Below, piece after piece: positions 4,581-10,873 of a stretch of DNA of 64,000 nucleotides. Position 1 is the first letter of the stretch, and every line of letters starts with the position of its first letter. A model generated the notes under the pieces. The model did no database searches. It worked only from the letters and a program-made list of their open reading frames with translations, and was not told the origin of the DNA. The translations under genes were made by a program, and so were the position numbers. This DNA comes from an uncultured Phycisphaerales bacterium (GTDB taxonomy: Bacteria; Planctomycetota; Phycisphaerae; Tepidisphaerales; Tepidisphaeraceae): the NCBI GenBank assembly GCA_963755915.1, contig CAVWLP010000002.1, forward strand, positions 4,512,001 through 4,576,000, written 5' to 3'.

Positions 4581-5581
4581 TCAGCCGATCTGCAACACGC
4601 CAGTCCCCGAAATCCCATCATGCTTGAGCATTTGCAGCCCGCGGTTGGCGTCCTGCAGGGGGAAGACCGTTGTTTTGGGCTTCAGGGGAATTTCGGCGGC
4701 GAGGCGCAGGAGTTCTTCGCCGTCGGTGCGGGTGTTGGCGGTGACGCTGCGAAGCTCTTTTTCGTAGAAGAGATGGCGTTGGTAATTCAATGTGGGAATG
4801 TCGGTAAGATGGATTCCCGCGATCGACAGGGTGCCGCCGCGGTCGAGGGCTTCCAAGGCGGGCAAAACCAAATTGCCCACCGGCGCGAACATCACGGCGC
4901 TGTCGAGCGAACCGGGCGGCTTCGCATCGGCGGAGCCGGCCCAGGTGGCGCCGAATTCCAGGGCCAGTTTGCGGTGCATTTCGTCGCGGGTCATTACAAA
5001 GACGGTGCAGCCAAGATGGCGGGCGATCTGGATGGCGATGCTGGCGGATGAGCCGAAGCCATAGAGGCCGAGCCGGCATCCGGGCTTCATCCGGGCGCGC
5101 TTCAGGGCGCGGTAGCCGATAATCCCGGCGCAGAGGATGGGCGAAATCGTCGCCGGGTCGATCGAAGCGGGCAGATGGTAGGCGAAATTTTCGCTGACCA
5201 CGGCGTACTGTGCGTATCCGCCGTCTTCGTCGTAGCCGGTGAATTTTGCGTTGGGGCAGAGATTTTCCTTTTGTGCTTTGCAATAGCGGCACTGGCCGCA
5301 GGTGTGGCGAAGCCAGGCGATTCCCGCGCGGTCGCCGATTTTGAATTTGCTTACGCCTTCTCCCAGGCGGTCGACTGTTCCGACCACCTGATGTCCGGGA
5401 ATGATGTGCGGCCGATGGGGCGGAAGGTCTCCCTCCACGACGTGGAGATCGGTTCGGCAGAGTGCGCAAACCAAAACGCGAACGCGAATCTCCCCCGCCT
5501 TGGGCTCAGGCGTCGGGACTTCGGCAATTCAAGGGGGGAGGAATCGATCAGCCCGGGCTCTTTGAGCGCCATCGCCTTCAT
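4581..5581 (-). CDS. Zinc-dependent alcohol dehydrogenase (frameshift near 5520)
   Basis: [16 protein letters not shown], structural Zn motif CGQCRYC...[15 protein letters not shown]. Confidence 0.92.
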
Positions 5582-6162: not shown

Positions 6163-6558
6163 TCACTTCGCTACGTTCGAAGCCAGGGCCGCTACGAGCG
6201 CGATGTTGGCCGTCAGTTCCTGAGGCAGATGATGTCGGTCACGCAAATATTCGACCGAATTAAACGAAATCCATGCGTTTCCCTGCTCGTCTTCCCAGAC
6301 GAGAAGCTTGAGGGGCAAGTCGATGGCGATGGTGGGCGCGGCGAGCATCAGGGGCGTGCCAGCCTTGGGGCTGCCGAAGATGAGCAACTTGGTGGGCCGC
6401 ATGGTCATCCCGGCGAGTCCGGCCTCGCCGCTGTGGTCAATCAGGGCGAAGATTTTGACGCCTTTCTCGGCGAGGACCGTCTCCAGCCGCATGACGGTCT
6501 CGCTGACACTGTGGCTGCTGGGGACATTGACGATTCCATTGGCTTCCTGGGAGGGCAT
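6163..6558 (-). CDS. DUF302 domain protein
   Basis: IFALIDHSGEA...LLIFGSPKAGTPLM...IDLPLKLLVWED. Confidence 0.88.
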   Translation of the reverse strand: MPSQEANGIVNVPSSHSVSETVMRLETVLAEKGVKIFALIDHSGEAGLAGMTMRPTKLLIFGSPKAGTPLMLAAPTIAIDLPLKLLVWEDEQGNAWISFNSVEYLRDRHHLPQELTANIALVAALASNVAK

Positions 6559-6684
6559 AGATCTCCTTTCACTGGGATTGGGCGAACAGTTTCATGCAGA
6601 GCATAACCAAATATAGCGTGGCGATGAGGCCGACGCGGTACCCGCAAATTAAAGAACTTTCAGATTTCCCTTGCATCCCCGGAC

Positions 6685-6702
6685 CGTAAGTGTACACTTA
6701 CG
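6685..6702. promoter_or_regulatory. Predicted TetR operator overlapping the tetR -10 box
   Basis: Perfect 18-bp palindrome CGTAAGTGTACACTTACG. TTGCAT (6671) N16 TACACT (6693) precedes the ATG at 6709. Confidence 0.8.
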
Positions 6703-6708
6703 ACCCTC

Positions 6709-7286
6709 ATGGCTAGCGGCGACCTTAAACGAATGCTTCCCCTGGTGGCGCGAGCCTTCGCGGACCTGGGATATCGCCGGGCGACGACGGCCGCCTTGGC
6801 GAAGCGTTGCGGGGTGCGGGAAAACGTGCTCTACCGCGCCTGGCCGGACAAAAAAGCGATGTTCATCGCCTCCATCGACTTTGTCTGGCAGCGGTCGATG
6901 GATATCTGGCAGCGGCTGGTCGAGGAATCAGGAAAAACGGGGGCGGAGGCGGCGACGCTGATTCTCGAATACGAGTCGAAACACCACGGGGAAACGGGGC
7001 TTTACAAAGTTGTGTTCGCCGGCCTGACGGAGCTGGATGATCCGCAGGTTGCGGCCGCCCTGCGGAATATGTACCGCAGCTTTCACGCGTTCATCACCCG
7101 GCAGGTGCTGGCCATGCGGGAGCAACCTTCGGCGCGGATTCGGGAAGCGAGGCTTCCGACGAGATGTGCGCCTGGGGCGTGCTGGGGATCGCCACCGTGG
7201 TCAACATCGACCGCGAGCTGAAGCTTTTCAGCCCCCGCGAACGGGCGCAGCTTTTTACCCGGCTATTACAACTGCTCATCCAATGA
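6709..7286 (+). CDS. TetR/AcrR family transcriptional regulator (frameshift near 7150)
   Basis: N-terminal HTH: FADLGYRRATTAALAKRCGVRENVLYRAWPDKKAMF. The C-terminus continues in another frame to TGA at 7286. Confidence 0.88.
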
Positions 7287-7310
7287 CCTCTTGTTTTTTT
7301 TATATCCTCG

Positions 7311-7326
7311 GTAAGTGAATACTTAC
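7311..7326. promoter_or_regulatory. Second copy of the predicted TetR operator, upstream of the desaturase
   Basis: GTAAGT-GAAT-ACTTAC, same half-sites and spacing as 6686-6701. Confidence 0.78.
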
Positions 7327-7353
7327 GGCCTTTGGGCCGGAAAGGATGCGTCT

Positions 7354-7986
7354 ATGCTCGTTTCACTTCTTTCGTCCGCGGCTTTGATCCTGGCGGGAAA
7401 ATGCCTTCTCAAATTTATCGCCGCGGTTTTGGTCACGGATTTTATCTCGGGGGTTTTTCACTGGTTTGAAGACGCGTATGGCCGGGAGGACTTTCCCTTC
7501 ACCGGCAAATGGATTACGCGATTGAACGTCCTGCACCATCACAACCCGCGGGCCTTCGTCCACAATTCCTGGTGGCAAAGCTCGTGGGACCTGACCCTGG
7601 TGGTGGCGATCGTCGTGCTCGTCGCCTGGGCGATGGGGTGTCTGAGTTGGCCGGTGTGGGTGTTTGCCATCGTCGGGGCAAACGCGAATCAGATTCACAA
7701 GTGGACCCACCGCACGCCGCGCGAGAACGGCAGGATCATCACCGCGCTTCAGCGGCTTCATCTGGTGCAGAGCGTGCGCCATCACGCCCGGCACCATACC
7801 AACCCGAAGGACAGCAATTACTGCGTGATCACGGATTTCCTGAATCCGATCCTCGACGGCCTTCGGGTGTGGGAGGGGATCGAGTTCGTTCTGCTGCACC
7901 TGTTTGGAATGCGGCGGAGGGTTGATCCATCGGCGAAGCGGCCTGAAACGCCGATCGGTGCGGTTCATCAGATCAGCGCACCCTAA
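7354..7986 (+). CDS. CarF/TMEM189/FAD4-family membrane lipid desaturase
   Basis: His boxes DFISGVFHWFED, LHHHNP, NQIHKWTH, HHARHH, plus NYCVIT...NPILD; hydrophobic segments; AAGGA RBS before ATG 7354. Confidence 0.88.
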   Translation: MLVSLLSSAALILAGKCLLKFIAAVLVTDFISGVFHWFEDAYGREDFPFTGKWITRLNVLHHHNPRAFVHNSWWQSSWDLTLVVAIVVLVAWAMGCLSWPVWVFAIVGANANQIHKWTHRTPRENGRIITALQRLHLVQSVRHHARHHTNPKDSNYCVITDFLNPILDGLRVWEGIEFVLLHLFGMRRRVDPSAKRPETPIGAVHQISAP

Positions 7987-8037
7987 GTCGTGTTTCTCGT
8001 TTCTGGGGCATGGGAGTGCGCCACCCGGCCGAATGAA

Positions 8038-8109
8038 AATCTCACGCAGAGGCGCAAGGCGCAGAGAATCTCGGTTTTCCTCTGCGCCTCTGCGCCTCTG
8101 CGTGAGGTT
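8038..8109. repeat. REP-like palindrome, family A (intron-free copy)
   Basis: CTCACGCAGAGGCGCAAGGCGCAGAG...CTCTGCGCCTCTGCGCCTCTGCGTGAG, located between convergent genes. Confidence 0.85.
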
Positions 8110-8139
8110 CTTCAAAGCGGGCATTAGGTGCGGCCTGGT

Positions 8140-10873
8140 TCAGTGAGGCGTGTACCCCGCGATCACGCTTGTAAATTGATATTCGCCTGACCCCACCTCA
8201 AAAACGGCAGCTCCCGCTTCGAATCGTACAAACTTCACCCCCATCGCCTGCGCTGTGGGCTTCCCCCCTTCCGTCACCGATTCCGCATCGCGCGCGGGAA
8301 TATATACCATCGCCGTCGTGTTTGCCGGAACCACAACATGCATCGAAACGCTCCCAGATTTCTGCGCCCACTCACTTACAATCCGACCATAAGCGGAATC
8401 GTAATGCGCCCGCACCCATGCGAGATCGCCCAGCATCGCCGGCTTGATGATTAATTTCCTGAAGCCCGGCGCATCCGGGTCAGGCCGAATCCCCGCCAAG
8501 CCCTGGTAAAACCAACTGTCCAGCGAATTGAAGCAGGCGTGAATAAACGACGCTCCGCCGTCCCATTGCTCCGGCCACGTCGTGTCCCCTTGCTCCAGGC
8601 AATATCCCCAGCCAGGGTAACTTTTGTTGTGGACGATCGTCCACAAGAGATCGTCACGGCCGATGTCCTGGAGGTAATGAATGAGAAAATACGTGCCAGT
8701 GAGGCCGGTATCGAGATGGGCGCCGCGGGCGGCGATGCTCTGAAACAGGGTCTGCTGCACCGCAACCCGCAACTTTTCCGGCGTCACGCCCGCGACCAGC
8801 GGCATCACCAGGTACGCCTGTTTGTCGTTCAAATAACAGTTTCTCTTCGGATCGAAATAGTTTTCCTGGATTCGCGATCGCAGTGCATCGGCCTGGGCCG
8901 AAAATTCCGATGCGTCCGCCGTTCGATTCAGCCCCTTTGCCATCCAGCCAAGCTGATCGAGCAGATAGACGAGATAGCAGTTGTTAAAAAACTCAGCCTC
9001 CCGGGGTGAGGGGAAGCCCCAGAGTCCCCTGGCGTTTAACGGTCCGGGCGGAAGCCAGTCTCCCAGGCTATCTATTCCGTTCTTGGCAAAGGCGCGCAGC
9101 AGTCCATCGCTTTCATGGGACTGAAGCATCTGCACATAGCGCCGGCAGGCCAAATAATTTTCGCTGATCGCGGCGCGATCTCCGTAATAGAGATTCAGCC
9201 GCCAAGCCAGCTCCTGAAGCGCCGCGCCCCACGGCGGCCCGCCGCCCCCTTCGCCCTGCGGGGCGGTGTGCGGGATAAATCCAGTCGTCGGGTCCTGCAC
9301 GTCGCGCCAATCGGCGATCCACTTTTCGTAAAACCCGGGCATCTGGAAATTCATGATGCAACTGTCGATGGAGACCTGCCCATCGCCGCCGTAACCCAAT
9401 CGCTCCCGGTGCGGACAATCGGACATGTATCCCCCCTGGCTCAGGCAGTGCATCGTCCGCAGATCGACCTGGTGCATGCGATTGATGAGCGGGTCCGAGC
9501 ATTCAAATTCCCCCGCCTCATCCCAGGCCGCTCCTATGGCCAGCGCGGTTGCATCGCCGGGGCTGGGTGGCGAAGGCAGACCCTCCACCGTGGCGTATCT
9601 AAATCCGTGGTAGTTGAATTTGTTGGTGAACACATCTCCGTCGTCGCCGGACGAGATCAGCAAGTCGCGCTGATTGAAGACTTCATCGTCCTGGGCGCTA
9701 ACGGCTCGGTCGGAGTAATGGATGGTCACGACATGACCCGCCGGGAGGCGCGGAAGTTTCAGGCTCAGAAATCCGGTGAGATTCTCGCCGAAGTCGAAGG
9801 CGTAAAGGCCGCCACCAAGGTCTGAGCACGAAACGGCGGGAATGGTTTTGATGATCTCATCGGGCGGACCGCGCTGGGCATCGGCTTCGACCGGCGGGCT
9901 GGCGACTTCCTTTGCCGCTGCCCAATCTGCATCGGAGAAATCCGGATCGCACCATTTGGGTTGGAGTGCGCGGGGAATGACAAGTTCGCCGCCAAACTGG
10001 GCAACGCTCCAGCTTCCGAGGATCGCGCGACCGCTGGCAGCGCATCGCCAGCTCGAATCGGTGCCAATCGTGATCGGTTTGCCGTCGACGCTGAGATCAA
10101 GCTGCAACCGCGCGATCGGCCCGTCATTCACAACCCCGCGGCGCCCCGGCCAATACCAGCCGCGGCTGAGCCAGAGGCCGATGCAATTCGGGCCTCTATG
10201 CAAATAATTTTTGACGTTATAGGTTAGGTAGAGCGAGCGCTTGGAATAATCGGTCACGCCGGGGCTGATGACATCCGCGCCAACTTTTTGCCCATTCACA
10301 TAAAGTTCGTACCACCCCATGACATTCACGCGCGCGATGGCCGAATCCAGGTCGCCGTCGAGATCAAAATCCCGCCGAATCTGAGGCTCGTTGCAGAACC
10401 CCGGGGGACTTGCGGGCAAATTCGCCATGATCCATCGGGCGTGCCAATCCGCGGGCTCTAGGAGCCCCATCTGCCAGACGGCCGGCGCGCTCCAATCAGA
10501 GACGTTCCCCTTCTGATCCCAGATGCGCACCCTCCATTGGTACGTCTGTGCCGAAACCAGCGGCTCGCCGCCATATTCCACGTTCACCGAGTCATCCGAC
10601 CGCACTTGTCGGCTGTCCCAGACGATTTTGTCGCCCCGGCTCACCTGGATTTGATACGCCGACTGAATCTCGCCCCGGGAATCCGACTCGATGGTCCAGC
10701 TTAGCCGCGGCCTGGGTGCATCGATCACCGGGGTTCCCGCAAGATATTCACAGCGCAGCCCCCCTACCTTCAGCGCTGCGCAGTACCGCCGGGGAGGCGA
10801 TGGCAACGAGCATGGCAAGAAGTAATTTAACGATTTCCCTGTCGTAGCCGCGGGGAGATTTCATCTCCTTCAT
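8140..10873 (-). CDS. Alpha-L-rhamnosidase, GH78 (frameshift near the signal peptide)
   Basis: LRCEY...PRLSW, DFGENLTG, FNYHGFRY, SDCPHRERLGYGGD, TTWPEQW, SAYGRIVSEW. Confidence 0.9.

Follow-up and report, generated by a model that had tools for sequence, protein, structure and literature searches.

What controls the gene for a membrane-bound, desaturase-like enzyme in a soil planctomycete, and what does that enzyme do? The question is raised by two adjacent genes in a 64,000-nucleotide stretch of DNA from an uncultured Phycisphaerales bacterium (assembly GCA_963755915.1, contig CAVWLP010000002.1, positions 4,512,001 to 4,576,000; hereafter the window). The first gene encodes a TetR-family repressor and the second a protein of the family PF10520 (Lipid_desat), the superfamily of CarF, TMEM189 (also called PEDS1) and FAD4. 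A member of this superfamily completes plasmalogen synthesis in humans, and no activities other than those of PEDS1 and FAD4 are known to us in the superfamily. A first-pass annotation of the window had read the pair as a CarF/TMEM189-like module of a probable planctomycete, in which both genes share a palindromic operator. The assignment to this phylum agrees with our results, the 95%-identical relative being titled Phycisphaerales.

Our analysis favours, with a probability of roughly 0.7, a self-contained TetR switch that acts on its own gene and on the adjoining one, which would encode a membrane diiron oxidase of a short bacterial PF10520 clade and not a plasmalogen desaturase. According to the mechanism that we propose, the repressor, a protein of 192 amino acids (aa), would bind as a dimer to two 16-bp operators, O1 over the start of tetR and O2 in the short stretch that separates tetR from the gene behind it. 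Bound there, it would repress tetR as well as the gene for the 210-aa enzyme, and a small ligand would release it. The enzyme would most likely desaturate, or possibly hydroxylate, a membrane lipid on one of its acyl or alkyl chains. The regulatory part of this reading, that is, a TetR protein acting through two operators on itself and on the adjacent gene, is well supported by the sequence comparisons described below and would be a switch of an ordinary kind, while induction by a ligand is suggested by analogy with the TetR family to which the protein belongs. Of interest are the uncharacterised short PF10520 clade and a TetR cassette that occurs across the phylum and carries a different cargo here.

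The probable operator motif and its association with tetR

The motif GTAAGT-N4-ACTTAC, 16 bp in length, is present in two copies that flank tetR (Table 1), as the first-pass annotation had described. Together with its flanking C and G, O1 forms a perfect 18-bp palindrome (6685-6702), and O2 has perfect arms around an asymmetric spacer. The second copy lies where it had been placed, although its distance from the start codon of the enzyme gene (ATG at 7354) is 27 nt and not 28, with the sequence GAAAGGA in between. The start that had been given for the whole feature, 6671, is merely the first base of a spurious open reading frame (ORF).

Table 1. Positions of the features of the tetR-PF10520 locus within the window.
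Feature	Position	Strand	Remarks
Operator O1 (predicted)	6686..6701	.	GTAAGTGTACACTTAC, GTAAGT-GTAC-ACTTAC; ends 7 nt 5' of the tetR ATG
tetR-family repressor gene	6709..7286	+	PF00440; product of 192 aa after read correction; stop codon 7284-7286
Operator O2 (predicted)	7311..7326	.	GTAAGTGAATACTTAC, GTAAGT-GAAT-ACTTAC; in the 67-nt spacer between tetR and the desaturase gene
Shine-Dalgarno sequence of the desaturase gene	7340..7346	+	GAAAGGA; read from the sequence
Membrane diiron enzyme (predicted), 210 aa, short bacterial PF10520 (Lipid_desat) clade	7354..7986	+	PF10520, E 1.3e-36
DUF302 gene	6163..6558	-	PF03625, E 2e-19; divergent from tetR, with a common 150-bp intergenic region that holds O1

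When up to one mismatch is allowed, O1 and O2 are the only matches in the window, and two or more matches occurred in none of 100 dinucleotide shuffles of it. The genome-wide scan that the annotation had proposed yields two exact copies in 6,626,754 bases (3 contigs), both at this tetR, and none for the reversed pattern that served as control. At zero, one and two mismatches, the counts are 2, 2 and 52 for the motif and 0, 10 and 201 for the control; the exact pair thus stands out from the control, whereas the near-matches do not. The two one-mismatch copies (C2:1059721-1059736 and C2:2709111-2709126) are both intergenic, and their number, 2 in the genome versus 10 in the reversed-pattern control, is not above chance and gives no indication of a wider regulon. 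The site at C2:1059721, GTAAGCATTCACTTAC, recurs unchanged in locus L137 and lies 54 nt upstream of a 378-aa ORF, the N-terminus of which resembles, by eye, a GTPase P-loop.

The association of the motif with this type of repressor extends over the phylum. The intact TetR of L006, a metagenome-assembled genome (MAG) of the Tepidisphaeraceae, was used as the query against a sample of 400 other Planctomycetota genomes. Homologues were found in 27 of them, 21 with 37-49% identity over nearly the full length and 6, all from one family, with 29-34%. The loci of 16 of these 27 genomes contain 27 motif sites with up to two mismatches, where the rate in the window's own genome (56 per 6.6 Mb) would lead one to expect less than one by chance in roughly 90 kb. 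The motif stands upstream of the tetR homologue in 14 of the 27 loci, one of which (L145) is doubtful, and in 10 a site falls between the stop codon of tetR and the gene behind it. The gene that follows tetR encodes, in 10 loci (L127-L131, L134, L135, L139, L141 and L146), a protein of 356-406 aa with an internal repeat and a signal or lipoprotein-like N-terminus; these proteins are mutually 30-44% identical and have no Pfam match even at E <= 1. Other loci carry a sulfatase, DUF2339, DUF3419 or aminotransferase gene in this place, and tetR and the motif are all that stays constant. Because the motif accompanies tetR homologues whatever the downstream gene, the palindrome is very probably the operator of this TetR.

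To judge by gene order, what the TetR/operator cassette usually controls in other Planctomycetota is this family of 356-406 aa, and since the cassette would there act on an unrelated secreted protein, the regulator does not appear to be lipid-specific. No homologue of this usual cargo was found in the window's genome: tblastn of 17 downstream proteins at 1e-5 gave two weak matches only, both from the unrelated protein of L133. None of the 27 genomes with a TetR homologue is among the 33 of the same sample that carry a PF10520 gene. We know of hardly any regulatory sites in Planctomycetota, and an operator motif is now defined for a planctomycetal TetR subfamily. As a separate observation, about five tandem copies of a 16-base unit, GAAGACACCAGGCCGC, take the place of the palindrome upstream of the tetR homologue in L138 (1-168).

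Each palindrome would also be able to form an RNA stem of 6-7 bp, and the two copies could accordingly be hairpins of an attenuator or terminator, or else sites of another factor, that lie next to tetR incidentally. We find this hardly credible. The RNA folds of the O1 and O2 regions are no better than those of shuffles (z -0.5 and -0.06), and, in the site list as read by eye, none of 12 two-mismatch sites has a compensating change in the other arm; uncompensated arms and shuffle-like folds argue against a role as RNA hairpins and fit recognition by a protein. The plus strand has no terminator with a U-tract, the only terminator-like site in 6500-8200 being on the minus strand. Coincidence would also have to account for the motif going with tetR homologues across the phylum, independently of the neighbouring gene, and for both exact genome copies sitting at this tetR.

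The TetR repressor and its reading frame

The N-terminal helix-turn-helix domain of the repressor is recognised by TetR_N (PF00440) with E 3.4e-9 and 36.8 bits against a cut-off of 24. In the assembly, the tetR ORF spans 6709-7221 and encodes 170 aa that end in a junk tail, and the true C-terminus of the protein is found in another frame (7131-7286), beyond a one-base frame break at 7130/7131. Taken at face value, the break would make tetR a real pseudogene, with a constitutive desaturase in a decaying module, and the tetR of G001, a genome of the same genus, is broken as well, about 40 nt beyond the corresponding position. To check the frame, contigs of four public soil runs (X1-X4) were compared with 6560-7420. 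Of the short-read contigs, X2 (6560-7145) and X3 (6883-7161) run across the break, and both have an extra G behind 7130, which changes GG to GGG and joins the two frames into one protein of 192 aa; a third (X4) shows the same at its loose end, and X1 has no coverage there. Since all short-read contigs that reach the spot carry the extra G, the frame break is an assembly artefact, in which one G is missing from a G run, and we treat the gene as intact.

Other facts speak against a pseudogene too. Other genes of the assembly are split, namely a zinc alcohol dehydrogenase gene in the window and a gene for an oxidase linked to flavin adenine dinucleotide (FAD) on C3, and marker completeness is 81% despite there being only 3 contigs, a combination that is typical of long-read indel errors. 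Compared with L006, an assembly of short reads, the parts of the protein on either side of the break are both conserved, with 73% identity over the first 139 aa. The corrected product has the size of a two-domain TetR (about 190-210 aa), as does the intact L006 orthologue of 202 aa. A decayed tetR is, in our judgement, highly improbable.

The assembly looks indel-prone in general. The alcohol dehydrogenase gene (4581-5581, minus strand) is split near 5475-5520, probably by another assembly indel: a 76-aa ORF (5351-5581) holds its N-terminus, and a 297-aa ORF begins at position 12 of the ADH_N profile. The FAD-linked oxidase gene (C3:532970-533724), divided between two frames, is a further sign of such indels. 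In G001, the tetR break (L004 1300-1330) adjoins G/C runs.

The first-pass annotation had likened this regulator to the acyl-sensing proteins DesT and FabR. DesT-desCB of Pseudomonas and FabR of E. coli are TetR repressors of fatty-acid desaturation, and the likeness consists in a TetR-family repressor that stands beside, or controls, a lipid-desaturation gene by way of a palindromic operator. Sequence comparison lends the analogy no support: neither DesT nor FabR is among the 15 Protein Data Bank (PDB) sequences that match at E <= 0.01 or among the NCBIfam matches, a result that does not exclude a common type of ligand. The window's TetR shows no detectable specific similarity to them, its neighbouring enzyme belongs to another family, and the cassette elsewhere appears to control a secreted protein that is not involved with lipids. 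The closest solved TetR structures by sequence are those of SlmA, a TetR-fold nucleoid occlusion factor (E 6e-7 over residues 18-133), and of Thermotoga TM1030. The DNA site of SlmA, which we take to be a palindrome of GTGAGT-like half-sites, would resemble GTAAGT. However, the match to SlmA amounts to 33 bits only, its half-sites abut while those described here are 4 bp apart, and its biology is different.

The enzyme and its position within PF10520

The product of the second gene matches PF10520 with 126.7 bits (cut-off 26.4) over profile positions 2-174 of 175, and it is the only member of the family in the genome. It is 49-76% identical to proteins from Verrucomicrobiota, Burkholderiales, Limnocylindria and Tepidisphaeraceae and belongs to a short bacterial clade (about 190-230 aa) that bears the NCBI label "fatty acid desaturase CarF family protein". 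The residues H36, H61, H62, H115, H119, H144, H147, H148 and D40 are invariant in both of our alignments (17/17 sequences in A2, and 13/13 in A3, which includes 4 true CarFs). In mouse PEDS1, they correspond to H96, H121, H122, H187, H191, H215, H218, H219 and D100, of which H122, H191, H215, H218 and H219 are presumably numbered correctly, as they fit the spacing of the alignment. The other numbers, H96, D100, H121 and H187, as well as F118 and H131, which are used below, are those given in passages of PMC8960569. The eight histidines, and the aspartate that bonds to the first of them, are described in passages of PMC8960569 and PMC9131029 as essential in PEDS1.

The AF2 model of the enzyme is confident, with a pLDDT of 88.7 and a pTM of 0.79. 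Foldseek against the PDB returned nothing at E <= 0.001 for this model, and a search of PDB sequences with the enzyme gave 0 matches. With an exhaustive structural aligner, the hydroxylase domain of the yeast sphingolipid alpha-hydroxylase Scs7p (4zr0) came first, as the only clear match (Z 7.4, root-mean-square deviation 5.5, 156 aligned residues); the next match had Z 3.9, and SCD1 (4ymk) had Z 3.7 (root-mean-square deviation 5.8, 151 aligned residues). Scs7p and SCD1 are, like the predicted enzyme, membrane diiron enzymes, but they are only 14% and 11% identical to it, and among helical proteins a Z below 8 counts as modest. The match to the hydroxylase family PF04116 (FA_hydroxylase) is borderline, at 30.5 bits against a cut-off of 31. 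On the basis of the model and of the conserved residues, the protein is a plausible active membrane diiron oxidase.

The label "CarF/TMEM189-like" had implied an enzyme that makes vinyl-ether bonds. A genuine CarF/PEDS1 under TetR control would agree with the Pfam family, with the eight common histidines and the equivalent of Asp100, four residues after the first His, in a membrane diiron protein, and with the automatic annotation of some relatives as "plasmanylethanolamine desaturase". Nevertheless, the window protein reaches 76.3 bits with NF045946, the CarF equivalog model, against a cut-off of 500. Scores with this model are 68-92 bits for the short forms (n=12, the window protein and 11 relatives), 185-263 bits for the longer planctomycete forms (n=21) and 544-557 bits for the named myxobacterial CarFs (n=4), to which the window protein is 25-28% identical in A3.

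The differences also concern individual residues. Asn58 occupies the position of PEDS1 Phe118, three residues before the HH box, and Asn is found there in 29/29 members of the short clade, compared with Phe in 7/7 CarF-type sequences. According to passages of PMC8960569, the Phe118 equivalent, one of the residues mutated in that study, is conserved in CarF/TMEM189 homologues, and the mouse F118A mutant retains 5.9% activity. In the column of His131 (H113 of CarF), the window protein has Asn71; in A3, this column holds His in 7/7 CarF-type sequences and N, K or R in 6/6 short ones. Across the short clade (n=29), it holds H in 11 members, N in 10, L in 5, R in 2 and F in 1, and the 11 histidines favour a PEDS1 identity, as does His70 of the window protein, one residue before the column, where 20/29 members have Arg. 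Passages of PMC9131029 report that His131/H113 is essential in CarF and in human TMEM189, and that it is lacking in homologues of plants and Bradyrhizobium that did not complement carF.

The first transmembrane helix is missing as well. At the N-terminus, the short forms are about 45-60 residues shorter than CarF-type sequences, in which this part includes a hydrophobic helix; the NF045946 match begins at profile position 59 of 269, and in place of four transmembrane helices, with one at the N-terminus, the model has three long hydrophobic helices, a topology that is predicted. A 9-residue gap relative to CarF-type sequences precedes the NQxHKW box.

Searches for ether-lipid precursor genes, which are weak tests in an assembly so rich in errors, revealed no FAR-type reductase in the genome: the best match to PF07993 has 39 bits and falls in ORFs of the size of short-chain dehydrogenases/reductases (SDR), and this family also matched in 14/14 control genomes. 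PF02913 matched two loci, one encoding a FAD oxidase of 714 aa with a fused Fe-S domain (Cys motifs, by eye) and the other a split gene. No AGPS-like ORF with an N-terminal WWGWG motif was found in the genome, with the same limits; the motif was taken from most of the AGPS rows shown in the supplement of PMC13012113.

Judged by these sequence differences, the enzyme is not an orthologue of CarF/PEDS1 and a plasmalogen role is unlikely for it; that it should prove to be a genuine vinyl-ether-forming desaturase strikes us as very improbable. The labels "plasmanylethanolamine desaturase" and "CarF family" on short proteins are not evidence of plasmalogen capacity.

The enzyme might instead be FAD4-like, introducing a trans-delta-3 bond into the sn-2 palmitate of phosphatidylglycerol (PG) or a similar bond into a diacyl phospholipid, which we also regard as unlikely. 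FAD4 has a plastid peroxiredoxin as its partner. The search for a conserved neighbour gene beside the bacterial desaturases found none, which speaks against a FAD4-like system; a search for a conserved small gene downstream of them gave 18 candidates, the largest homologous group having 3 members. On the other side, PG is a common bacterial lipid, both proteins belong to PF10520, and the PEDS1-specific ninth His is not conserved in the short clade, as it is not in plant FAD4 according to passages of PMC9131029 and PMC8960569. Those of PMC9131029 give Arg as the usual residue of plants at that His, and it is one column earlier that Arg occurs in most of the short clade. By description, the clade differs from FAD4 in being bacterial and shorter and in its invariant Asn at the Phe118 position, a residue whose reported conservation in CarF/TMEM189 homologues (passages of PMC8960569) counts against the FAD4 assignment too.

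Distribution of the module and of the short clade

The layout O1-tetR-O2-desaturase is found in two other Phycisphaerae genomes, G001 and the MAG L006. The half-sites are invariant across the three genomes, and spacers and flanks are free: the spacers of O1 and O2 are GTAC and GAAT in the window, ATAT and AATT in G001, and GTAC and AAAT in L006. The first site of G001 is a 26-bp perfect palindrome (read by eye), and both sites of L006 are flanked by TT...AA. The Shine-Dalgarno sequence GGAAAGGA is present in G001 as well, and GGAAAGGG stands at the matching place in L006. The claim that the TetR and the PF10520 enzyme share an operator motif is thereby borne out beyond the window, since the gene pair and both operators are kept in these relatives, though the module is rare. 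The refuting condition named in the first-pass annotation, a lack of conservation of both pair and operator in relatives, is thereby ruled out.

A PF10520 homologue (E <= 1e-10) occurs in 33 of the 400 other Planctomycetota genomes, the best being 47% identical. In a species-representative collection, 379 loci contain relatives of the desaturase, and the best 80 of them are mostly from Verrucomicrobiota and Burkholderiales. A homologue of this TetR lies upstream in two of these best 80 of 379 loci, L005 (the same as G001) and L006, so that within this set a TetR beside a short-clade PF10520 gene is confined to three Phycisphaerae genomes, the window's included. The GC content is flat across the locus (0.57-0.61) and gives no compositional sign of recent transfer.

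Several observations weigh against the switch that we propose or against the role of its target. A consensus scan of 6500-8200 found 0 promoter-like sites, and thus no sigma-70-like promoter at O1 or O2; the first-pass annotation had placed the palindrome over a tetR -10 box, of which the palindrome stands and the box is a by-eye reading only (TTGCAT, 16 nt, TACACT; 7/12). The 7 nt between O1 and the tetR ATG hold no Shine-Dalgarno sequence, and a leaderless or near-leaderless tetR mRNA would therefore be required. No terminator was found between tetR and the desaturase gene in the scan of 6500-8200, and O2 may act on a separate promoter or on read-through. The C-terminal domain of the TetR matched no Pfam family, and the four runs used for the frame correction all come from one study, possibly that of the source sample, which makes them apt for detecting an assembly error and not for independent biology. 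With a hydroxylase as the nearest solved fold and a borderline match to PF04116, the reaction may be either a desaturation or a hydroxylation. Lastly, among the 40 nearest genomes (12 of the same genus, 12 of other genera of the family and 16 of the class), the desaturase is found in G001 only, and 39/40 are without a match. The module is a rare accessory trait.

The neighbours of the pair in the window are genes for a response regulator, a DUF302 protein, a rhamnosidase and an ion channel, in agreement with the earlier statement that no Car genes lie nearby. The DUF302 gene may possibly be co-regulated; its synteny is kept in G001, and in L006 another gene, of 512 aa, sits upstream instead. 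On the other side of the L006 pair, a 312-aa ORF (L006 4602-5540), absent from the window, lies 3' of the desaturase on the same strand and overlaps its 250-aa frame by about 140 nt. By eye, the N-terminus of this ORF resembles an NAD-binding protein of the SDR/epimerase type.

For the neighbourhood of short PF10520 genes in general, 77 of the best 80 of 379 loci were used, L048, L052 and L084 being dropped because their desaturase ORF could not be delimited, and 138 flanking ORFs of at least 90 aa were scanned. A LysR-type regulator, usually divergent, is the neighbour in 22/77 loci, a chromate transporter in 7/77, an SMP-30/gluconolactonase in 4/77, CobW in 3/77 and a TetR in 2/77; elsewhere in the clade, the neighbouring regulator is thus a LysR or none. 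The LysR-adjoined genes are found in Verrucomicrobiota and others (L007, L009, L012, L018 and 18 more loci), and no curated LysR subfamily was matched by these regulators, all of which scored below the cut-off. In Burkholderiales, the short PF10520 gene follows the chromate-transporter gene (7 loci). Because of the frequent pairing with a dedicated regulator, gene order suggests that the short-clade enzyme is generally made on demand.

The short clade is widespread in soil and freshwater Verrucomicrobiota, Burkholderiales, Chloroflexota and some Planctomycetota. A broader reading, which we offer as a tentative and rather doubtful one, is that the short PF10520 proteins of the Asn58 type would constitute a third functional class beside PEDS1 and FAD4, one that modifies bacterial membrane lipids and is regulated on demand, and that the phylum-wide TetR cassette would have been re-used for a new cargo. 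If this is true, a ready-made switch (O1-tetR-O2-target) has been given a new target in Phycisphaerae. The locus, with one repressor, two defined operators and an enzyme of 210 aa, offers a compact and tractable handle on a large uncharacterised bacterial branch, and the inducer of the TetR, once found, would hint at when bacteria need the modification.

PF10520 homologues across GTDB are catalogued in PMC13012113. In the 12 of its 15 supplementary files that were searched, Dataset S1 names Planctomycetota 68 times and Verrucomicrobiota 70 times, and the rows shown include short proteins of 201-204 aa from Prosthecobacter. Passages of the same source describe a tree in which a purely bacterial clade of 229 sequences is collapsed, and plant and alphaproteobacterial candidates that are not functionally PEDS1. 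Full-text searches of the literature brought to light no functional work on the short bacterial PF10520 clade; as far as these searches reach, its existence is in print, and its function and the TetR/operator module are not.

Longer PF10520 proteins of the CarF type are present in many Planctomycetota (L093-L113, for example L101 1351-2100), including 10/11 genomes of one family. About 50% identical to myxobacterial CarF, with the NF045946 scores of 185-263 bits given above, they are candidates for genuine plasmalogen desaturases in the phylum. Seven of them were aligned, and the Phe is found in 7/7 and the ninth His in 4/7. One locus, L105 (208-2154), has a 649-aa frame in which the CarF-type domain covers residues 379-625, a possible N-terminal fusion.

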